Source: a candidate division WWE3 bacterium UBA1401 (lineage in GTDB: Bacteria; Patescibacteriota; WWE3; UBA101185; UBA10185). Taken from it: 64,000 bases of DNA. Positions 9,116 through 24,660 of this stretch are shown here, piece after piece (position 1 is the stretch's first letter; each line of letters starts with the position of its first letter). Position numbers and translations under genes: made by a program. Under the pieces are notes generated by a model. It was not told the DNA's origin. It did no database searches and worked only from the letters and a program-made list of their open reading frames with translations. The DNA is taken from assembly GCA_002305115.1 (NCBI GenBank), contig DBQF01000003.1:1338-65337 (forward strand), in the 5' to 3' direction.

Positions 9116-10603
9116 TTAATTTAGCTTATAGACGCTCGCGATACTATTACCGTCAACTACAAGTGTATAGACAGGTATTTTCCCACTGGCAGAAAGCTGC
9201 TTTGGCTTAGATCTGTGATCGATGAAATACGTTGCCTGAGAACTATCTTTTGTAAACACAAATTTTGTACCCCCCTCTGCAAGGTGCATATTGTATTCTG
9301 TAGAAAGATGCGTGCCTATAACGTACACTTGTTCTTCTGTAGCTACTTTGGCAAGATGCTCATATACCTGTTTGCCCGAATTGCCCCAATAATCAAGCTC
9401 AAAGTTTTCTTCAATTTTGCCTGGGAGCTTTGCTATCTCATTAAAGTACACATAGTGGTGCGGATGTAGTTTAGCCATTGTGATAATAACAAGCGCAATC
9501 TGGACAACAACTGCATAAGTTACTAGCTTTTTAGTTTTCACATTGAGGCTTTGCAGCCACGTCATTCCATAGATACTAATTAGCAATAGTGCCGGATAAA
9601 TGAAAAACATTTGTCGCCACCCGTTATAAAGTGTTGATTTGAAATATATAACAGCACCTAAAGGCAATACAAACCAACCAAAAATGGGAAGCATATAGAT
9701 TAGAAATTTGCGCTTAAATAAGGCTAAAACCGCAGCAACTATTCCTGAAAAAAACAAACCAATATATAAAACTGGTGTTGTAACAGCTATCCAACCTAAA
9801 GTATAGTGCCAAGGCACTTTAAAACTGGAAACACTTTTGCCAAAATAAAGCGTGGCAGTCTTCTGATTATAATTAGCCATAGTCTCGAAAGCTTCTTTAA
9901 ATCTATCAACAGGGTCTTCCCATAAGATCGGAAAGAAAATGTAGACAAATAGTGTATACAATCCCACAAATAGAACGCTTAGCGTAAGGACATGAACAAA
10001 CTTCTTGCTTTTTAGAGTTAACAGAAAAAAGGTTGCCAACCCCAGCGCAGGAATCATAAGTGCCATAATACGTATGTCGGTAGCAATTGCTGCGGTAAGG
10101 GCAAACAATATAATCGAAATATAGCTCTGTTTTTTTAGAAACTGGATCAAGAAATAAAAAGCAATAATACAGGCAGACATGAAAGCCAAATCTTTGGTGT
10201 TGTAAAACGAATGCGCAAAGATTCGGGGACTTAAAACCAGCAAAAGCGTACCAAGCAAGGCAAGCTTCCAACTGCCAAATAATTCTTTTACCAGAAAATA
10301 GAAACAGATAGTGCTTATGTAAAAAAATAGGAAGGTGAGCAGATGGCGAGTTTCGTAAATTTCCCTTACAGTTGATAACTGTAAGCTGTCTTCGGCAAGA
10401 AAAAGGATGTATTCAAAAAAGGGGCCGTAGTATTTGTCTTTGGATCTAAGCATTTTGGGATCCTGATGATGCACATAGTTGAAAACACGCTTACCCAAGT
10501 CTCTTTGCAACGGCTCATCCCAGCTAATTCCAAAGTCTTTGTAAAGCAACAAACCTACTATAAGCAAAACAATAAAAAAAATGACTACAAGTGCTTTTTT
10601 CAT
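9116..10603 (-). CDS. GT-C fold membrane glycosyltransferase (ArnT/PMT family 39-like)
   Basis: About 11 TM helices. First-loop acidic motif ISWDEPLQRD. Soluble C-terminal domain. Confidence 0.65.
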   Translation of the reverse strand: MKKALVVIFFIVLLIVGLLLYKDFGISWDEPLQRDLGKRVFNYVHHQDPKMLRSKDKYYGPFFEYILFLAEDSLQLSTVREIYETRHLLTFLFFYISTICFYFLVKELFGSWKLALLGTLLLVLSPRIFAHSFYNTKDLAFMSACIIAFYFLIQFLKKQSYISIILFALTAAIATDIRIMALMIPALGLATFFLLTLKSKKFVHVLTLSVLFVGLYTLFVYIFFPILWEDPVDRFKEAFETMANYNQKTATLYFGKSVSSFKVPWHYTLGWIAVTTPVLYIGLFFSGIVAAVLALFKRKFLIYMLPIFGWFVLPLGAVIYFKSTLYNGWRQMFFIYPALLLISIYGMTWLQSLNVKTKKLVTYAVVVQIALVIITMAKLHPHHYVYFNEIAKLPGKIEENFELDYWGNSGKQVYEHLAKVATEEQVYVIGTHLSTEYNMHLAEGGTKFVFTKDSSQATYFIDHRSKPKQLSASGKIPVYTLVVDGNSIASVYKLN

Positions 10604-16949: not shown

Positions 16950-17023
16950 TGGCTGGGGGATAGGGATTCGAACCCCAATAGGCGGGACCAAAACCCGCAG
17001 TCCTACCATTAGACGATCCCCCA
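16950..17023 (-). tRNA. tRNA-Gln (anticodon UUG), CCA encoded
   Basis: Minus strand TGGGGGATCGTCTAATGGTAGGACTGCGGGTTTTGGTCCCGCCTATTGGGGTTCGAATCCCTATCCCCCAGCCA. I folded the cloverleaf by hand: 7-bp acceptor, anticodon stem GCGGG/CCCGC, loop TTTTGGT, T-loop TTCGAAT. Confidence 0.9.
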
Positions 17024-17026
17024 ATG

Positions 17027-17503
17027 TCAGCGCAGAAGCATTATATCAAAAAAATACCATAAAAACGGCAAAACAGTAACAAATTCAAACAATTTTCTAT
17101 TGAAACTGGGTTTTAGTACTGGAGAAAAATACCTTGCACTCCATGGCCACAACAATTGCTTCTGAGAAACTAGTGTATCCATAAGAATGTGAATACCAAG
17201 ACAAATGGCGGGAATTACTGACAAATTAAAGCCATACAAGATTAGCAATAGAATTAAGCATGTGATAGGCCTTTGCAAAAAGCTGTGATTCGGTAAGGTG
17301 TCAGGAACATAGTTAGTTTTTGTAACAGCAAGACTTCTCAATTGTTCCAGGCTAGTCTTTGGGTACAGCAATATGTGATCAAGGTCAATTCCAACACCTA
17401 ATGCATAAGAGAGCAGAACAGTGGAACTTGTAAGTTCAATGCCTGTTTTTTGTGCTATTAGTAGTATGCTCGTCGTAGCAACTAGATGTGATGTGATAAG
17501 CAT
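17027..17503 (-). CDS. membrane-bound metal-dependent hydrolase-like protein (YdjM/DUF457-like)
   Basis: Polytopic protein with a GIDLDHIL motif. Start set to the ATG at 17503 (MLITSHLV...). The stop lies 3 nt from the tRNA-Gln 5' end. Confidence 0.5.
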   Translation of the reverse strand: MLITSHLVATTSILLIAQKTGIELTSSTVLLSYALGVGIDLDHILLYPKTSLEQLRSLAVTKTNYVPDTLPNHSFLQRPITCLILLLILYGFNLSVIPAICLGIHILMDTLVSQKQLLWPWSARYFSPVLKPSFNRKLFEFVTVLPFLWYFFDIMLLR

Positions 17504-17575
17504 AGGTTTGAGACGGAAATTGGCTGTGCCATCCAGAGCACTAACAGAAATTGATAGTGTTATTTCCAAACTAGT

Positions 17576-17616
17576 CCTTCTTCGCTACGCTACGAAGGAC
17601 ATCCGCCTGCGGCGGA
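17576..17616 (-). repeat. GC-rich hairpin modules in the 3' trailer of tRNA-Val
   Basis: Minus strand TCCGCC-GCA-GGCGGA, then CTTCG-TAGCGTAG-CGAAG. It shares the words CCTTCTTCG, CTACGCTA, CGAAGG and GGCGGA with the 50-nt insert at 17771-17820, in opposite orientation. Confidence 0.6.
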
Positions 17617-17693
17617 TGGTGGGCTCCACAGGGCTCGAACCTGTGACCTTTCGGATGTAAACCGAATGCTCTAACCAACTGAGCTAGGAGCCC
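17617..17693 (-). tRNA. tRNA-Val (anticodon UAC), CCA encoded
   Basis: Minus strand GGGCTCCTAGCTCAGTTGGTTAGAGCATTCGGTTTACATCCGAAAGGTCACAGGTTCGAGCCCTGTGGAGCCCACCA. Full cloverleaf folded by hand. Confidence 0.9.
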
Positions 17694-17730
17694 AAGACGA
17701 TATTTGATACTTTATGAGGGCTTCATTATT

Positions 17731-17836
17731 ACCGAATGCCCTGCCTGCCGGCAGGCAGGTCTAACCAACTGCTTGCCCTTCGTAGTCCGCCGAAGCTTTA
17801 GCGTAGACGGACGAAGAAGGGAGCTAGGAGCCCAAG
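17731..17836 (-). pseudogene. tRNA-Val 5'-half pseudo-copy (positions 1-32) interrupted by a 50-nt hairpin insert and a 20-nt perfect palindrome
   Basis: Exact matches to the intact gene at 17821-17836, 17760-17770 and 17731-17739. Inserts at 17771-17820 and 17740-17759 (CCTGCCTGCCGGCAGGCAGG). No 3' half is present. Confidence 0.7.
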
Positions 17837-17877
17837 CTAACGTTGACATTTTATCAAGTATTTCAGCAAAAATCATT

Positions 17878-18393
17878 ATGGTATACAATAAAACCATGAT
17901 CAAAATCCCGGAAAAATACAGAACTGTTACCACCTTCTCCAAATGTGCGGCTTTAGCGCTGTTCGTAATGCTTCCGCTCATTGGATTTGTTGTTGGCATG
18001 AACTACCAAAAAACTTTATCCAGTGCCACTACAGCAAACACAGACTCGCCAGATATGGGATATCCAAAACAAATGATTATCGTAGATTACCCACAACCCA
18101 ACGATGTAATTTCCAACCCACTTACCGTAACGGGAAAAGCGCGTGGAAACTGGTTTTTCGAGGGAGACTTCCCTGTAACACTTTATTGCGGAACCATTGA
18201 TGGACCAATCCTTGTGCAATATTATGCCACAGCACAAGGGGAGTGGACGACGGAAGATTTTGTGGAATTCAGCTCAACACTAGAATTTCCTATGATCTGC
18301 CAAGAAACTGGGTTTTTGGAATTAAGAAGAAACAACCCCTCTGGCTTACCCAATCACAATGACAAGGTTTATATTCCAGTGAGATTTGACTAA
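17878..18393 (+). CDS. membrane-anchored Gmad2-type immunoglobulin-like domain protein
   Basis: TM anchor, then IVDYPQPNDVISNPLTVTGKARGNWFFEGDFPVTLY, typical of Gmad2 domains. Start moved to the ATG at 17878. The upstream part of the 17704 ORF is translated hairpin DNA. Confidence 0.6.
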   Translation: MVYNKTMIKIPEKYRTVTTFSKCAALALFVMLPLIGFVVGMNYQKTLSSATTANTDSPDMGYPKQMIIVDYPQPNDVISNPLTVTGKARGNWFFEGDFPVTLYCGTIDGPILVQYYATAQGEWTTEDFVEFSSTLEFPMICQETGFLELRRNNPSGLPNHNDKVYIPVRFD

Positions 18394-18449
18394 AACTAAC
18401 TAGAGCTTAAAACTTTCTAATACCTGCTTTCAAAAATAAATTCAGCAAG

Positions 18450-18467
18450 TGCTATACTTTTAGTATG
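18450..18467 (+). promoter_or_regulatory. extended -10 (TGcTATACT, hexamer 18453-18458), 6 nt, then ATG 18465
   Basis: Read directly. Leaderless layout. Confidence 0.45.
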
Positions 18468-19199
18468 ACATTTAAAAATAAAACAGCCATAGTGACCGGT
18501 GCGGGACAGGGTATAGGATTTGGCATTGCGTCCGCACTAGCCAGCCAAGGATGCAACATAGTTGTTACCGACATCAATGAGCAAACTGCCAAAGCTGCAG
18601 CTGAAGAACTCAAGGAGAGCACAGAAAATGTTCTGTACGTTGTTTGTGATGTCACCTCAGAGGCACAGACAAAAGATTTGGTATCTCAAACAGTGGAAAA
18701 ATTTGGGAGCATAGATATTTTGGTTAACAATGCTGGCATTTATCCTTTCGTGCCATTTGAGAATATGACACAGGAAGACTGGAATAAAGTGATGGACGTA
18801 AACCTTAAGGGAGTTTTTTTGTGTACACAACAAGTGCTAAAAACCATGAAAGCAGGCGGAAGAATTATCAATATCTCATCTATTGCATCAATGATAGGTT
18901 TTGAGGGATTGGTTCATTATTGCACTTCAAAAGGCGGAATTAACGCCTTTACCAGAGCGTTAGCACTGGAGCTTGCACCAAAGCAGATAACCGTTAACGC
19001 GGTAGCTCCCGGTGCCATTTCTACTCCAGGCGCTGCCATGGCAGATGATGTAAAGGAAGCAACAATTAAAGGTATTCCAGCCGGAAGATTAGGTGACCCA
19101 ATGGATATTGCGGGACTTGTAGTGTTCTTGGCATCTGATGTTGCAGGGTATATTACCGGGCAAGTTATTGCGGTAGATGGCGGTTGGACGCTTAGATAG
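18465..19199 (+). CDS. short-chain dehydrogenase/reductase (FabG-like)
   Basis: TGAGQGIG cofactor motif, NNAG, and catalytic S...YCTSK. Confidence 0.8.
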   Translation: MTFKNKTAIVTGAGQGIGFGIASALASQGCNIVVTDINEQTAKAAAEELKESTENVLYVVCDVTSEAQTKDLVSQTVEKFGSIDILVNNAGIYPFVPFENMTQEDWNKVMDVNLKGVFLCTQQVLKTMKAGGRIINISSIASMIGFEGLVHYCTSKGGINAFTRALALELAPKQITVNAVAPGAISTPGAAMADDVKEATIKGIPAGRLGDPMDIAGLVVFLASDVAGYITGQVIAVDGGWTLR

Positions 19200-19268
19200 A
19201 ACTTACTCAAATGCCGGAAAGTTTACGGTTATAACTATATGATTCTTTTTGCGAAAATTGGTTAGCTG

Positions 19269-20066
19269 ATGGACATTAATAACTACATAATAGACTGCAC
19301 AGATCTACTAGACATTGAACCGAAAATAAGAGATTTCTTCAAAGAAATTGGTAACAAACTAAAATTAATCAGAAGCTATGACAAGGATATTAGTGACATT
19401 GGGATTGCTGGGGGATTCGTACTAGATACTCTACTTAAGCTTAGCCCATCAGATATAGATCTTAAATATGCAATACGCGATAAGTTTGGAAATTTCGACA
19501 CTACGTGCAGATGTGACTATATTAAAACACTTGTAAACAAAACAGGTTTATCTAAATACGAAATTGATTTAGGAAACATTAAGGAAAATAATAATCATAT
19601 TTTTTCATCAGTCAAAGATAAGCATCTGGGAATTTTCTCTCATCATCCCGAATATATCTCTCAATTTACGCTTGATGAAGACGGAAGAATTTGGGGGAAC
19701 AGAGACTCACTAAATGATTATATTAATAAAGTTTATAATCCTCGAATAGAAGGATTACTAGCTTGGGTAACTCACGAGGGTAAGTCATACCACGAGGCTC
19801 TTGCACTTTTTCTAATAAGGGGATTTGGATACATTCGTAAGCGTGAATTAAGCATGGGGGATAGATTTAGATACTATCTGGAACGAGCACCTGAAATATT
19901 TAATATTTACTCAGGAGAAAAGCATGATCAGGAACGCATAGTTAAGTACTTTAACAAAAAGGTGGGTTCAATTGAAAATCTCTCGGACATGCTTGTGAAG
20001 CACGCAATTTATAACAAAGAAATTATTTTGGAACCAATTGCTAATTGGCTAAGGGTACACAACTAG
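19269..20066 (+). CDS. divergent nucleotidyltransferase resembling the CCA-adding/poly(A) polymerase head domain (tentative)
   Basis: IAGGFVLDTLLKLSPSDIDLKY resembles GG.VRD.LLG....DID. The later ALFLIRGFGYIRKREL resembles the LR.LRA.RF helix. At 265 aa it is much shorter than class II CCA enzymes. Confidence 0.35.
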   Translation: MDINNYIIDCTDLLDIEPKIRDFFKEIGNKLKLIRSYDKDISDIGIAGGFVLDTLLKLSPSDIDLKYAIRDKFGNFDTTCRCDYIKTLVNKTGLSKYEIDLGNIKENNNHIFSSVKDKHLGIFSHHPEYISQFTLDEDGRIWGNRDSLNDYINKVYNPRIEGLLAWVTHEGKSYHEALALFLIRGFGYIRKRELSMGDRFRYYLERAPEIFNIYSGEKHDQERIVKYFNKKVGSIENLSDMLVKHAIYNKEIILEPIANWLRVHN

Positions 20067-20075
20067 GGTTTTAGT

Positions 20076-20855
20076 ATGCTTATATCTTTATTAGTATCAT
20101 TACCCAGAGAATCCAGATACTTCTTTGAACAGCTAAATTTTAAAGAAGAACAAAAGGCCAATAGGGTATTTTACACAGCCAAATATAGGGAACATGAAAT
20201 TATTTTGCTCCATACCCATTGTGGGCCTGTAAACGCAGCAGCTTGTACCGAAGCAATTATCCAAAATTACCAGCCAGATATAATTATTAAAACGGGAAGT
20301 GGCGGCGCACATAGACCAGAACTTTTGCCAGGAGATGTTTTAATTGGCACAAATTTCAGAATAATGTATAACCCCGCAGAGTTTGCAGATACGCTAGATC
20401 ACGCAAAAATGCCTAAATTGATAAGATTTTATAAGTATCAGGAAGATGTTAAGTTTGATGAACTTACAACGTCTGCAGAATTAACTGCTCTACTTGATAA
20501 ATTAACTGCAACTAAACTAGGACCTATATACACGCAGGATAATTGGCACACTGATACTAAATACAGGAACCCAATTATCAAGGTTGGAACTGTCGGCTCA
20601 AATGAAGCCTGGACGACTGACGCTGGCTTGATATCTAGGAAGCGTGCGTTGTTTGGGCAGGATGTGGAAGATAAGGAAAGTGCTTATATTGCGCAAGTTT
20701 GTAAGCTGCATAAAGTACCTTTTTTGGCATTTATTGGGGTTTCTGATAATGAGTTGATCTTTAAACAGACAAATCGGGATGCTATTAGACAGGCTATTGA
20801 AGATGCAAGCAGAAACGCTGCACTAGTAACATTGGAGTTTATAAAAGCATTATGA
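20076..20855 (+). CDS. nucleoside phosphorylase superfamily protein (MTA/SAH nucleosidase Pfs-like)
   Basis: CGPVNAAACTEAIIQNYQPDIIIKTGSGGA, GDVLIG, VEDKESAYIAQVCKLHKVPFLAFIGVSDNE. These parallel the Pfs motifs GKVNAA / TGSAGG / EMEaAAiAqVC / R.ISD. Confidence 0.65.
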   Translation: MLISLLVSLPRESRYFFEQLNFKEEQKANRVFYTAKYREHEIILLHTHCGPVNAAACTEAIIQNYQPDIIIKTGSGGAHRPELLPGDVLIGTNFRIMYNPAEFADTLDHAKMPKLIRFYKYQEDVKFDELTTSAELTALLDKLTATKLGPIYTQDNWHTDTKYRNPIIKVGTVGSNEAWTTDAGLISRKRALFGQDVEDKESAYIAQVCKLHKVPFLAFIGVSDNELIFKQTNRDAIRQAIEDASRNAALVTLEFIKAL

Positions 20856-21505
20856 AACTATTTGTTTGGGATTTTCACGGGGTACTCGAACAAGGCAACG
20901 ACAACGCTGTCCTGGAAATATCAAACCGCGTTCTCAGGGAATTTGGCTATACAATACAATTCACCAGCCAAGAATGCACCAACCTCTCTGGCCTAAAATG
21001 GCACGAATACTTCCAGTACCTCCTACCAGACGAACCACACATCAACCATATTTACTTGCAGGAACGCTGCTTTGAGCTGGCAGAATGCGAACCAGAAATA
21101 ATAGCAAAGCACATCAAGCCTAATGACAATGCGTACGCGGTTCTACATACAATAGAAGAAAGCGGTCACTCCCAGATAGTAATTTCAAACACAAAACCAA
21201 ATGCACTTACCATGTTCCTGAAAGTAACAGGGCTAGACACTTTTTTCTCCGAGCGGCATGCATTTGCCGCGGATGCGCACAAAACCAATATTCGTAAAAC
21301 TAAAAAAGATATCTTAAAAGAATATATTCAAGACAAAAAATTTGACAGCTTTGTAATAGTGGGTGACAGCCCTAGTGATATAGAATTGGGAACTATTGTA
21401 AACGGCACTACTTATCTTTACGCGCATAATACAAGGGAATTTAAAGATTGTGCAGCCCATTATAAGATCAGGAATTTGTTGGAAGTTTTAAAAGAATTAA
21501 CATAA
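20852..21505 (+). CDS. HAD-superfamily hydrolase with atypical motif I (D-F-H instead of D-x-D)
   Basis: FVWDFHGVL (motif I), ISNT (II), Lys-rich region (III), VGDSPSDIELG (IV). ATGA overlap with the upstream gene. Confidence 0.65.
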   Translation: MKLFVWDFHGVLEQGNDNAVLEISNRVLREFGYTIQFTSQECTNLSGLKWHEYFQYLLPDEPHINHIYLQERCFELAECEPEIIAKHIKPNDNAYAVLHTIEESGHSQIVISNTKPNALTMFLKVTGLDTFFSERHAFAADAHKTNIRKTKKDILKEYIQDKKFDSFVIVGDSPSDIELGTIVNGTTYLYAHNTREFKDCAAHYKIRNLLEVLKELT

Positions 21506-21594
21506 AGCCGAGTAGAGATCTTGCAACATGGGTTGCGATATAGGCTATCATGCGTTCAACTGAACATAATGTTTAAATTAATAAGCAAACGACA

Positions 21595-23307
21595 TTAATG
21601 TAGACCTCGCTTCTTTTCTTTTATAAAACTGCGCCAACCTTCCAAAAAACTCATAAAAACAGAAAACGGATAATCAACCAGCGCCCCAAACAAAATACTA
21701 ATAACATTGTATTCCTTCCATTTTGTTGATAACCACAACCCTAGCCTCGCCATTGGAGTAGAAAACGGCTCAATAAGAACATCCAGTACATTCTCCCTGT
21801 CAAGCATAGTAAGCTCGTTAGCACGCTGTTTAATAAGCATAGCAGCAAAAACTACCATAGCAACATTCGCGGTGTTAATGTACAAAGAAGTCCAAGGAAC
21901 ATTTGCCAATTTAAAAATCCAATAAATAAAATACAAAGCCACTAGCCCTCCCGCAACGTAAGCTACTGTGAAAATAAAAGTTTGAACCTTTGCAGCTCTT
22001 TTTTCCAGAAACAACTCATAAACCTCAAGAGCTGATGAAGCCAAAACAACACTACTTACAGCATTCTTCAATGCCACCAGATTATCCTTTGAAGGCAATC
22101 TTATAATACTTACAAGCAAAAACATAAGCACTGTAGGAATAGCTAGGTCTGCAACAATGGCCCACGGGCTAAAGTAACCGCGTACTAGGCTGGCAATTGG
22201 TATTTCAAATAACAATAAACTTGCGGCACCTGCCACAAAAATAGACAGAGTAGAGAAAACGGCAATTCCATAAAGCCGCTTTCTAAGTGTGGCCAGCCTC
22301 TCGGAGTAGACTTCTTCAACAGTAGCAAGTAATTGCGGAATAACCTCAACACTTTCTGTTAACATATGTTGGTCTTGCCAAAGCCTATCCATAGCATCTC
22401 CCAAGAGCAAGTATGCAGCGTCGTACTTTTCAGCAACAGCATAAAATTCGGAGGCACTTGAGGATTTCAAGTCAGCAGTAAGTTCTTCACAAATAGTACG
22501 CACATCAAGATTTGTAGCGTTTAGGCCAAAAAAGTCTGGGTACTTCACACGCATAAGGTCAAATGTGATTGTCGGGTAGTCACATTTAAACAGCGCTTTT
22601 CTGACCGCAATAAGCATCTGAATCCTTTTGGCTTCGGTACTAAGCTTACCTTCAGGTCTAACCTGAATCATCCGATCAAGGTTCGTTACCATTAGCTCAA
22701 GCAAAGCATATTCTTTATGCGAAGGCACAAGTACATACTCTAGTTCACATGAGGCTAGCTCAAGTAACCATCTGTAGAAGCTCATCTGCCTTTTTATTTG
22801 GGTTCTACGTTCTTTTCCAGGCGCAGCTTCTTCACCTAAACGGTTGCTGTTTAAAATTGCTACATACTTCTCCAAAACTGCCTGTACAGTTGCTATCTTA
22901 GCTCTTGGGATGCTGCCATTTTTAAAATACCCGCCTAAAATCAGTTCATGTACAAGAGATTCGGCAGTGGCCGCAGTATCAATGGTAGGAGAAATGCTAA
23001 TCCCGTAAATCTTATTAACGAATTTGCGTCTTAGGATGCGCTCAATAACACTTCGTCTGACCAAGTGTTCTTCTTTCCAATCGATGATTCTGCGCAGTGC
23101 CTCGTAAGCTTTAGCTACTTTTGAAACTATCGCGTCAACGTAGACAGGGCTGGCAACGGGTTTTTCTTCTGCCAGAGAAGCTTTTTTGTAAGCAGCAACA
23201 TATTGAACAAATGCTTCAGAAAGTTTGGATCTATTATTGTGTGACGTGTTTTCTAGAGGAATAACACCTTTCATTCTAGTATTATACCGTTTTTTTATTG
23301 CAGCCAT
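21595..23307 (-). CDS. large membrane protein (about 340-aa soluble N-terminal part plus about 6 C-terminal TM helices), function unknown
   Basis: Long uninterrupted ORF with coding-like composition. No motif recognised. Confidence 0.5.
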   Translation of the reverse strand: MAAIKKRYNTRMKGVIPLENTSHNNRSKLSEAFVQYVAAYKKASLAEEKPVASPVYVDAIVSKVAKAYEALRRIIDWKEEHLVRRSVIERILRRKFVNKIYGISISPTIDTAATAESLVHELILGGYFKNGSIPRAKIATVQAVLEKYVAILNSNRLGEEAAPGKERRTQIKRQMSFYRWLLELASCELEYVLVPSHKEYALLELMVTNLDRMIQVRPEGKLSTEAKRIQMLIAVRKALFKCDYPTITFDLMRVKYPDFFGLNATNLDVRTICEELTADLKSSSASEFYAVAEKYDAAYLLLGDAMDRLWQDQHMLTESVEVIPQLLATVEEVYSERLATLRKRLYGIAVFSTLSIFVAGAASLLLFEIPIASLVRGYFSPWAIVADLAIPTVLMFLLVSIIRLPSKDNLVALKNAVSSVVLASSALEVYELFLEKRAAKVQTFIFTVAYVAGGLVALYFIYWIFKLANVPWTSLYINTANVAMVVFAAMLIKQRANELTMLDRENVLDVLIEPFSTPMARLGLWLSTKWKEYNVISILFGALVDYPFSVFMSFLEGWRSFIKEKKRGLH

Positions 23308-23344
23308 GACTCATAGAAAATAAGTGACTAGTGCATTAAGCGAA

Positions 23345-23386
23345 AAGCCGCCTTAGGTATGTGGGGTTCACACCATAAGACGGCTT
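23345..23386 (-). terminator. rho-independent terminator of the GC-rich gene
   Basis: Minus strand AAGCCGTCTTATGGTGTG-AACCC-CACATACCTAAGGCGGCTT (imperfect long stem), followed by TTTCGCTT. Confidence 0.55.
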
Positions 23387-23391
23387 TACAG

Positions 23392-24357
23392 TTATCTCTG
23401 CAGCAGGTTCTGCAACATGATGCAGAGGTTTCGGAACGAGATTTCAAGAGTGTCCTCTGGCCGGTCAGTGTAGTAGTCTGCAGGACCAGAGCTCTCAAGC
23501 ACAAACGTCACACCTCGGCCATGGCGCAATCTCAGAATGTACCGAAGTACCTCTTCTGTTGCGGCATCGTCGGGGAAGATTGGGCTATGCTCGGCAATTA
23601 GAACGTCGCCTTCTGGGCTAGTAACCAATTCCCGAGTCTCAAACCCGTTTCCAACAATGTGGTAGACATCAGCATCTAGCAGTCCAAGTTGCCCCCTGAT
23701 GTCAGCAACCTCTAAGTCTCCTAGATCAACAAGTGTTTGCAGTGCAAACACTAGATGCTCGATATCAACCACGATCCCACAACCAGTGGCACCCACACTA
23801 GCGAGAATGTCGATTGCCAAAGTGCCAATCCGAAGGTCTAAATGGGTTGGGGGAACCCACTTTCCATCTACCAGAAACTGGTTGGAAAGTGACACATTTT
23901 CCAACCTGACTGGGATTCCCATACCCATCAGATCGCGGATCATATCTACCGTGCGATCGAGTGCTGCAGCGTAATCTTCCATGGTTCCCTTGTACAGAAA
24001 ACTATCGGAAGCGTATGGCGTGTACGTCCTGCCAGCTTCTACACTGGGACCATGAAGAACCACATACTGAGGTGCGTTTGCACTTCTACAAATCCGAGCA
24101 ACTGCTTTTACCAATTCCCTGGGTCCTTGCATTCCTGCAAGCCAGTTATTGGCAAACTGATTGGGCAGATGGATTCCATACGGAATGCCCATGCTACGTA
24201 GAAGATCCACTACTTCTACCAGATCTGGTAAATCTTTGTACTGGATCTTCAACTCAAATCCAAATACAAAAAATCTTAGGAGGTCTAGTGTCCTAAACCA
24301 CCCACTACGCTCTTCTACTTCCCGCAGCCCTGCAGGAAGAAAAACCTGAACCTTCAT
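23392..24357 (-). CDS. orphan TIM-barrel-like protein (xylose-isomerase-like / DUF692-like motif series), encoded by a roughly 50% GC gene
   Basis: Ordered motifs YGIHLP, VVLHGPSVEAG, ASDSFLY, VRLENVS, VVDIEHL, VYHIVGNG, IAEHSP, FVLES. AAGGAGG SD. Sampled lines count 30/60 G+C. Confidence 0.45.
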   Translation of the reverse strand: MKVQVFLPAGLREVEERSGWFRTLDLLRFFVFGFELKIQYKDLPDLVEVVDLLRSMGIPYGIHLPNQFANNWLAGMQGPRELVKAVARICRSANAPQYVVLHGPSVEAGRTYTPYASDSFLYKGTMEDYAAALDRTVDMIRDLMGMGIPVRLENVSLSNQFLVDGKWVPPTHLDLRIGTLAIDILASVGATGCGIVVDIEHLVFALQTLVDLGDLEVADIRGQLGLLDADVYHIVGNGFETRELVTSPEGDVLIAEHSPIFPDDAATEEVLRYILRLRHGRGVTFVLESSGPADYYTDRPEDTLEISFRNLCIMLQNLLQR

Positions 24358-24407: not shown

Positions 24408-24416
24408 ATTATACCA
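24408..24416 (-). promoter_or_regulatory. extended -10 TGGTATAAT for the GC-rich gene, overlapping the GIY-YIG stop codon
   Basis: The revcomp of attatacca at 24408-24416 lies about 45 nt upstream of the ATG at 24357. Confidence 0.4.
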
Positions 24417-24660
24417 AACTTTGGATAAGCTGCTCTTTCTCCTGCCTGGAAAGCTGCTTGATTTCAAACTCACGCTTAAGTGCCAGAGACCTAGAAGATA
24501 CAATTTCCGAATAAACCAACTTTACAGGTCTGCGTGCTTTGATATATTTTGCTCCAACCTTTGCATTATTATGTTCCTCAATTCTGGACACTAAGTTCTT
24601 AGTGTAACCGCAGTAATAAGTTCTATCAGCACATTCAACTATGTATACATAATAGTTCAT
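24409..24660 (-). CDS. GIY-YIG nuclease superfamily protein (stand-alone, UPF0213/YhbQ-like)
   Basis: YVYIVECADRTYYCGYTKNLVSRIEEHN gives the GIY-YIG core. 83 aa. TATAAT (revcomp of 24667-24672) plus 6 nt precede the ATG. Confidence 0.8.
   Translation of the reverse strand: MNYYVYIVECADRTYYCGYTKNLVSRIEEHNNAKVGAKYIKARRPVKLVYSEIVSSRSLALKREFEIKQLSRQEKEQLIQSLV

Follow-up and report, generated by a model that had tools for sequence, protein, structure and literature searches.

A half-copy of a tRNA-Val gene carrying a recurrent 20-nt palindrome in a Patescibacteria genome, and its possible kinship with homing-type elements of tRNA genes

We analysed a 64,000-nt stretch of contig DBQF01000003.1 (assembly GCA_002305115.1, candidate division WWE3 bacterium UBA1401), hereafter the window, in which a valine tRNA gene is preceded on the same strand by an interrupted copy of its own 5' half, hereafter the stub. 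The stub repeats tRNA positions 1–32 together with three nucleotides of 5' flank and is broken by two GC-rich insertions, an imperfect 50-nt hairpin and a perfect 20-nt palindrome; it has no 3' half, and the intact tRNA-Val(UAC) gene follows on the same strand (Table 1). Two further hairpins lie in the 3' trailer of the intact gene. An earlier, sequence-only reading of the window had described each of these parts, and our analysis reproduces them: ARAGORN and Rfam agree on the intact gene, the copy falls into three exact collinear pieces, folds and sequence agree on both insertions, and the inverted-repeat pairs I3, I8 and I12 account for the words that the trailer hairpins share, in inverted orientation, with the 50-nt insert.

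Table 1. Features of the tRNA-Val locus and related genes in the window (window coordinates)
Feature	Position	Strand	Basis
Intact tRNA-Val(UAC) gene, CCA encoded, functional copy	17617–17693	-	ARAGORN; Rfam tRNA model, 71 bits
Stub segment A: 3-nt 5' flank CTT and tRNA positions 1–13	17821–17836	-	direct repeat D1, 16/16 identical to the gene
Imperfect GC-rich 50-nt hairpin in the stub, ending CAAG(C)	17771–17820	-	-19.1 kcal/mol, z = -2.4
Stub segment B: D-loop and start of the D-stem 3' strand, AGTTGGTTAGA, positions 14–23	17760–17770	-	direct repeat D2, exact
Perfect 20-nt palindrome CCTGCCTGCCGGCAGGCAGG, clean insert at TAGA^GC (position 23/24)	17740–17759	.	-13.9 kcal/mol
Stub segment C: GCATTCGGT, positions 24–32, ending at the start of the anticodon loop	17731–17739	-	direct repeat D3, 9 nt
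AT-rich 37-nt spacer from the stub to the real tRNA	17694–17730	-	
Trailer hairpin TCCGCC-GCA-GGCGGA, abutting CCA	17602–17616	-	fold
Second trailer hairpin GUCCUUCG-UAGCGUAG-CGAAGAAGGAC	17574–17600	-	inverted repeats I3, I5, I8, I12
Stand-alone 83-aa GIY-YIG gene of the same small family	24409–24660	-	tblastn with the L040 nuclease, E = 9e-12; Pfam GIY-YIG, E = 8.7e-18
tRNA-Gln gene	16950–17023	-	
180-aa YdjM-like membrane protein	17027–17569	-	

Deleting either insert from the stub regenerates the exact tRNA sequence, with neither target duplication nor deletion, and the insertions are therefore clean. The boundary of the 50-nt hairpin is ambiguous by 1 nt (tRNA position 12/13 or 13/14), and the repeat finder reports segment B as 12 nt (17760–17771), its first base being ambiguous with the end of the insert. 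The base after segment C differs from tRNA-Val, and the last three nucleotides of the spacer (CTT) repeat the flank of the stub. No open reading frame (ORF) and no GCCAAC guide sequence occur in the spacer, and at a permissive threshold Rfam finds no intron between 17400 and 18000, where the tRNA alone is matched. The repeat finder identifies the second trailer hairpin as a shorter inverted relative of the 50-nt insert. Folded together, the two trailer hairpins reach -22 kcal/mol (z = -4.0); in the minimum-energy fold of the whole region the 50-nt insert pairs with the trailer around tRNA-Val (z = -3.7).

A chance origin of the half-copy is excluded, because no match to the exact 20-mer is expected in shuffles and because 16-mer, 12-mer and 9-mer repeats of tRNA-Val lie collinear within 106 nt. 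The Logan assembly of SRR5321237, which probably shares its reads with the source genome, is identical to the window over 17591–24199. Its contig (SRR5321237_8, locus L001) breaks at 17591, inside the second trailer hairpin, which points to a disturbance of the assembly graph by the palindromes or by some repeat at another genomic site. Each hairpin module is present in one copy, with no further copy elsewhere in the 64-kb window.

The 20-nt palindrome belongs to a family with the pattern CCTGYCTRYCGRYAGRCAGG, of which the window carries the exact consensus. In IMG/VR, a public viral-contig collection, the exact 20-mer is found in 35 stretches and the degenerate CCTGYCTRYCGRYAGRCAGG in 76, and the carrier contigs span 30–70% G+C, so that the count lies far above chance. 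Metagenome contigs were searched for the palindrome at 0–5 nt from the D-loop motif AGYYGGT; at least 120 contigs carry it just after this motif, yielding 110 distinct instances. The carriers listed are mostly AT-rich, and many come from groundwater samples. A BLAST search of cultured phages and plasmids with the palindrome in its tRNA context gave no match, although the low-complexity filter may have masked it. Neither the palindrome sequence nor the stub architecture appears in the literature covered, which does not extend to subscription journals.

The palindrome is also found at other tRNA positions: in the variable loop (L033), at 38/39 (L135) and in the T-arm (L054, L105, L224). Three tRNAs that bear it in the D-loop or variable loop are full length (L221, 1500–1595, Asn; L198, ~780–900, Ala; L033, 2239–2330, Met). 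Such tRNAs may be tolerated or processed; if they are the sole gene copies, either the RNA must work with the hairpin in place or the hairpin must be taken out of it. In some viral contigs (L029, L036 and L037, which are one 29-kb contig; L063 and L066; L086) the palindrome recurs three to six times, either as part of larger repeat units or enclosed by other hairpins, and neither a tRNA nor a nuclease gene lies close by. A common single-change variant (L091–L210) mostly presents G-T (G-U) rather than the A-C mismatch on the tRNA-sense strand. In clear tRNA contexts the G-U-compatible orientation exceeds the opposite one by about 5 to 1, a bias that hints at a constraint on one strand or on RNA.

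Around the palindrome the layout of the window recurs. Among the 110 distinct instances listed, 43 have an intact downstream tRNA that matches the fragment; these cover 14 isoacceptor types, four of the loci being Val-UAC. A further 25 have a tRNA-like left flank, 15 lie on contigs that end too early, and 27 are not obviously tRNA. About 70 of the 110 are clear tRNA 5' fragments ending in the anticodon arm. In the 43 matched loci the copy ends at positions 25–48 (32 in the window), and the gap from the stub to the real tRNA measures 6–94 nt in 27 and 222–347 nt in 16, the latter being the size of one ~80-aa GIY-YIG gene; the 37 nt of the window fall in the shorter class. Always clean, the insertions mostly use the register TA^GAGC; the alternative, TAGA^GC, is that of the window and of L093, L111, L115, L118, L121, L158 and L165. 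The site is constant over many tRNA species, and 29 aligned stubs have no target duplication. With these loci the window thus shares a same-strand partial 5' copy upstream of an intact identical tRNA, the palindrome site, the copy end and the gap size; it has no nuclease gene between stub and tRNA, as is the case in 27 of the 43.

ARAGORN cannot model a 20-nt insertion in the D-loop, and the palindrome was hence deleted before tRNA prediction, which regenerated a full-length tRNA in 2 of 133 instances. This result, together with the copy ends at 25–48, speaks against taking the stub simply for a decayed tandem duplicate, as the sequence-only reading had suggested among other explanations. The closest analogues of the window are L100 and L229, two-insertion stubs interrupted at 12/13 and at the D-loop boundary, and L149, L154 and L158 likewise have a short spacer and no gene. 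In L133, L155 and L222 units stand in tandem, consistent with insertion having recurred at the same place. At L165 (11868–12120, minus-oriented) an old tRNA-Thr is split into 5' and 3' parts by an intact tRNA-Thr(CGU). Resembling terminal inverted hairpins, TCCGCC-AGA-GGCGGA and its exact inverse, TCCGCC-TCT-GGCGGA, border this inserted gene.

Many of these loci adjoin a gene for a small GIY-YIG nuclease. At L040 the identical 20-mer lies in the D-loop of a tRNA-Asn 5' copy, followed by an 88-aa GIY-YIG gene and then by the real tRNA-Asn. Of four viral relatives of one nuclease, three (L040, L045, L046) stand beside a palindrome-tagged tRNA fragment; in L046 a tRNA-Arg fragment interrupted at 9/10 by a variant hairpin is followed by the nuclease gene and tRNA-Arg, and L045 has three hairpins within its tRNA fragment. 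Among the metagenome instances listed, 21 GIY-YIG genes of ~78–94 aa begin at most 130 nt after the palindrome. A total of 717 proteins are homologous to the small nuclease at E < 1e-8, and their source names fall in Patescibacteria and Bacteroidota. Seven of these homologues (L211, L216, L221, L222, L224, L226, L229) were picked by protein similarity, without reference to the palindrome, and all seven have an adjacent tRNA gene together with the palindrome or a derivative in a tRNA pseudo-fragment. Their source names are Paceibacterota (L211), Magasanikbacteria (L221), Chitinophagaceae (L216), Bacteroidia (L222) and Salibacteraceae. The D-loop of L216 lies outside the search motif AGYYGGT; L222 has a palindrome with an 18-nt expanded loop and tandem units with and without the gene; and L224 and L226 have a mirrored order, in which tRNA and gene are followed by a 3' fragment.

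Many of the nuclease frames, those of L094, L113, L125, L155 and L156 among them, have no stop of their own and run into the 5' part of the downstream tRNA, and the frame of L125 reads through the palindrome itself. The read-through tail SSVG comes from AGCTCAGTTGG, and the nuclease gene is therefore tied to the tRNA 5' segment. The window holds one gene of this small family, 6.7 kb from the tRNA-Val locus and with no tRNA fragment or palindrome adjoining (Table 1); the putative nuclease that it encodes could act in trans on the window unit.

Three tRNA-Asn loci (L114, L134, L138) join the palindrome to a ribozyme. In them tRNA positions 1–21 are present once and are followed by the palindrome, a short copy of positions 22–32, a ~230-nt group I core (Rfam 24.6 bits, E = 2.6e-4, with nhmmer support) and positions 21/22–76. 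The internal guide sequence pairs with D-loop bases 15–20, with a U-G pair at U20, to form the P1 helix, and P1 covaries, being GUCGGU/GCCGAC in two loci and GCUGGU/GCCAGC in one. Because positions 1–21 occur singly, a group I core is present and P1 covaries, these three loci are, as predicted from sequence, D-loop group I introns that begin with the palindrome. To our knowledge, bacterial tRNA introns sit in the anticodon loop and not in the D-loop. The intron-bearing genes lie at 9118–9460 in L114 (minus-oriented), 262–600 in L134 and ~1320–1512 in L138, with the predicted 5' splice site after U20; L134 has a G directly before A21, and L114 has no G at the expected 3' splice site. The core motif had no match in viral contigs. 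Neither the GIY-YIG genes nor this link to D-loop introns had been noticed in the sequence-only reading.

The real tRNA-Asn of L040 (855–1420) has an anticodon-loop group I intron (Rfam 86 bits), and this intron holds a Cys/His-rich ORF that is HNH-like by eye only; if the likeness is real, one tRNA gene hosts two nuclease-type elements. ARAGORN missed the intron-bearing tRNA-Asn in L040, L114 and L134 and mis-called the start of the palindrome-bearing tRNA-Asn in L221.

The other hairpins of the window have counterparts of varying reach. L100, L211 and L229 likewise carry a hairpin at 12/13, ahead of the main palindrome, and L094 has a 46-nt insert at 9/10; each of these extra stub hairpins differs in sequence. 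The trailer hairpin belongs to a TCCGCC-N(2-7)-GGCGGA family, which counts 18 members across 588 kb of related loci where ~0.2 would be expected; tRNA fragments contain or adjoin several of these (L117, L165). The words of the 50-nt insert (CCTTCTTCG, CTACGCTA, CTACGAAGGGCAA) were found outside the tRNA-Val locus only in L007 (1–274 of contig CAYTGV010000043.1, binned as Planctomycetia, 43% G+C), where they are part of a tandem repeat of ~196 nt within the 274 nt read. A scan of genome collections for these words returned L007 as the one related contig and L008 as an apparent chance match; in viral contigs the pattern matched coding sequence only, and in 1.3 Mb of related loci the words occur at chance frequency. 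The idea of the sequence-only reading that palindromic elements nest at the tRNA holds in so far as both hairpin families and the 12/13 hairpins recur; in the usual sense of repetitive extragenic palindromic (REP) elements or miniature inverted-repeat transposable elements (MITEs) it finds no support, given the missing target duplication and the single copy of each module in the 64 kb of the window.

The stub architecture recurs and is associated with the nuclease, and the window is one instance of it. We lean towards linking the window locus to a homing-type element resident in tRNA genes, of which it would be a gene-less relic or else a non-autonomous derivative. The apparent hosts of the element are Patescibacteria, Bacteroidota and some viral contigs. 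More tentatively, and short of calling it probable, we suggest that this element represents an apparently undescribed cross-phylum homing-type family that targets the conserved tRNA D-arm with a 20-nt palindrome and a ~80-aa GIY-YIG protein, in which an intact tRNA copy and RNase P replace splicing, the rare ribozyme-bearing forms are intermediates between free-standing nuclease genes and mobile introns, and the window holds a gene-less derivative with extra hairpins.

A full element would consist, in order, of the 5' end of the old tRNA, from a few flanking bases to the D-loop; the conserved GC palindrome of 20 nt, inserted cleanly at the boundary of D-loop and D-stem; the next 2–25 tRNA bases; the ~80-aa GIY-YIG nuclease gene; and a complete, uninterrupted copy of the same tRNA. 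In the window the 37-nt spacer would stand in place of the nuclease gene, a second hairpin would have been gained at 12/13, and two more in the 3' trailer. As to how such an element might work, we infer the nuclease activity, its cut site, the route by which hairpins insert, the trimming by RNase P and the purpose of the palindrome. The nuclease would cut uninterrupted tRNA genes near the D-loop, and repair would copy the element in a homing-like manner. With tRNA sequence on both flanks, the element could reach the corresponding tRNA gene in a different genome by homing, regardless of that gene's neighbourhood. The whole downstream tRNA would be carried along or regenerated, and everything upstream would become a long 5' leader that RNase P removes; with a whole tRNA downstream, no splicing would be needed. 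In the three tRNA-Asn loci the group I ribozyme would replace RNase P trimming. The palindrome would mark the insertion point and break up the duplicated stub, thereby blocking re-cutting and stopping deletion of the element between direct repeats. The stub in the window most likely has no function beyond that of a transcribed leader.

Several observations weigh against a homing-type origin. The tRNA-Val locus has no nuclease gene, its spacer bears no recognisable nuclease remnant, and this spacer does not significantly resemble the DNA that precedes the stub (p = 0.35). The intact downstream tRNA keeps the presumed target site and would need some other protection. Because the ~80-aa proteins are the bare GIY-YIG catalytic domain, with no DNA-binding domain, their sequence-specific homing activity is uncertain. 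The metagenome pattern required the D-loop motif, so that the site preference in that set is partly built in, and the 50-nt insert and second trailer hairpin form no family beyond the locus except in L007. Most palindrome copies in viral contigs lie outside tRNA fragments, and only two such loci have a nuclease, so that the palindrome can exist, and perhaps move, by itself; in L221 and L198 it sits inside otherwise intact, full-length tRNAs. These viral copies and intact palindrome-bearing tRNAs make an autonomous palindromic element a serious rival. Under it, small palindromes akin to REP elements or mitochondrial GC clusters prefer tRNA-like DNA and survive in dispensable copies, the half-tRNA is an ordinary partial duplication, and the GIY-YIG genes are neighbours for a separate reason. 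That the palindrome is common in viral contigs without a nuclease gene or tRNA, lies inside larger repeats (L029, L063, L066), uses other tRNA positions (L033, L135, L054, L105, L224) and keeps company with several distinct hairpin families all suits this view. It leaves unexplained why all seven similarity-sampled nuclease genes adjoin a tagged tRNA fragment, and the strand, the copy end and the matching downstream tRNA are too regular for random colonisation. Each hairpin occurs once in the window, and no REP-type transposase was seen among the ten neighbouring proteins. We regard this rival as unlikely, though not negligible.

An improbable alternative is that the tRNA-Val precursor owes a functional cis-acting RNA structure to the stub and hairpins, with a leader–trailer stem serving processing or stability and the 5' hairpins protecting the transcript. 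The hairpins are strong and include a UUCG loop, ~25 bp between the 50-nt insert and the trailer can close around the tRNA (pairs I3, I8, I12), and the G-U bias of the palindrome variant would accord with selection on RNA; yet two inverted copies of a near-palindrome give such complementarity automatically, analogous loci do not have it (L100, for example, has no trailer hairpins), the neighbouring tRNA-Gln has no such structures, and no relatives of the locus were found for covariation. More improbable by far is that the half-copy is the scar of a lost integrase element that used tRNA-Val as its attachment site. tRNA genes are classic integration sites, and partial tRNA direct repeats are the signature of integration, but here the 5' and not the 3' part is duplicated, the repeats lie 37 nt apart with nothing between, no integrase or mobile-element gene occurs within ~5 kb, and elsewhere the same layout recurs with a ~250-bp nuclease gene and not with integrated elements. 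The sequence-only reading rightly remarked that integration scars do not normally duplicate the 5' half. No relatives with an integrase-bearing island between tRNA-Val copies were found, and the 3' end of tRNA-Val had no match in viral contigs. To the view that the palindromes are an assembly or library artefact we give next to no credence: the Logan contig end in the trailer hairpin speaks for it, as palindromes can break assembly graphs, but two assemblers returned the identical sequence, the flanks continue in the same orientation, unlike a fold-back chimera, and over 100 contigs, obtained from unrelated samples by unrelated sequencing centres, carry the same palindrome at the same tRNA position.

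Other candidates were rejected. An archaeal-type intron or split tRNA with a bulge-helix-bulge motif does not fit a bacterial host and a stub that has no 3' half and is followed by an intact gene. The 20-mer is not followed by a T-run, as a terminator would be; a MITE bounded by CTAG fails because the sequence beyond the right end is not tRNA, and a MITE with target-site duplication because removing either insert restores the tRNA exactly. A group I intron at the window locus itself was dismissed for want of a ribozyme core and guide sequence, which occur only in L114, L134 and L138.

The window has ~39% G+C. Homologues of a neighbouring dehydrogenase carry the names Patescibacteria, Paceibacterota and Parcubacteria, and on sequence grounds the host is a bacterium of the Patescibacteria (candidate phyla radiation, CPR). 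A scan of ten neighbouring proteins revealed no integrase, transposase or other mobile-element gene within ~5 kb. The tRNA-Gln next door has no comparable hairpins, and both it and tRNA-Val encode their CCA ends. Between the two, on the same strand, lies the YdjM-like membrane protein, which matches no entry in the protein database but its own. The closest homologues of the dehydrogenase, a short-chain enzyme, reach ~72% identity and do not share the gene neighbourhood of the tRNA-Val locus; close relatives of this locus were found neither through the dehydrogenase nor through the 180-aa neighbour.

Homing nuclease genes are known as passengers of introns or as free-standing genes. If the homing-type reading is true, these elements would embody a third solution, in which an element invades a structural RNA gene and keeps it functional through a whole copy left downstream. 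Variants with a ribozyme could reveal the route by which nuclease genes become joined to introns, and a bare GIY-YIG domain linked to a 20-mer that is conserved over 30–70% G+C is a candidate for a compact structure- or sequence-specific nuclease. tRNA finders ignore the stubs and are blind to palindrome-bearing tRNAs, and the tRNA sets of CPR bacteria and Bacteroidota may be miscounted as a result.

Among known systems, yeast mitochondrial GC clusters, Rickettsia palindromic elements and REP elements nest and insert into genes, including RNA genes. They resemble the hairpins described here in being short, GC-rich, set in AT-rich DNA and divided into several families; in contrast, the palindrome here occupies a fixed site in many tRNA species, is the same 20-mer at 30–70% G+C, is linked to a nuclease and occurs once in the window. 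tRNA-restoring integrative elements likewise bring a displaced tRNA part and leave an orphan fragment beside an intact gene; they use an integrase, usually duplicate the 3' part and run to kilobases, whereas the units here duplicate the 5' part, measure 90–350 bp and have no integrase. With group I introns of tRNA genes that carry homing endonucleases, and with 'collaborative homing', the elements share clean insertion into a tRNA gene, a nuclease gene and the absence of target duplication; in L114, L134 and L138 the intron, whose P1 pairs with the D-loop, opens with the palindrome. Most members of the palindrome family, the window included, have instead no ribozyme and a second full copy of the tRNA.

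Two published systems come closer. In CPR bacteria, the group to which the window's host is assigned, GIY-YIG genes lie in insertions of rRNA genes that are neither group I nor group II introns (PMC11270868). These too place a GIY-YIG gene inside a structural-RNA gene, but their target is rRNA, the authors placed them outside homing, and neither a palindrome nor an exon duplication was described (PMC11270868). The nearest precedent is SegB, a phage GIY-YIG nuclease reported to cut inside tRNA genes, to be lodged among them and co-localised with them across many phages, and to drive recombination-dependent segmental duplication (PMC13096335, PMC2330249). SegB is a full-length enzyme, compared with the bare ~80-aa catalytic domain here, neither a conserved palindrome nor a regular 5' tRNA stub is reported for it, and the window locus differs further in having no nuclease gene. 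That the small nuclease would cleave element-free alleles at or close to the insertion site is hinted at only by the 2-nt offset between the two insertion registers, which would match the length of the overhang reported for SegB (PMC2330249).

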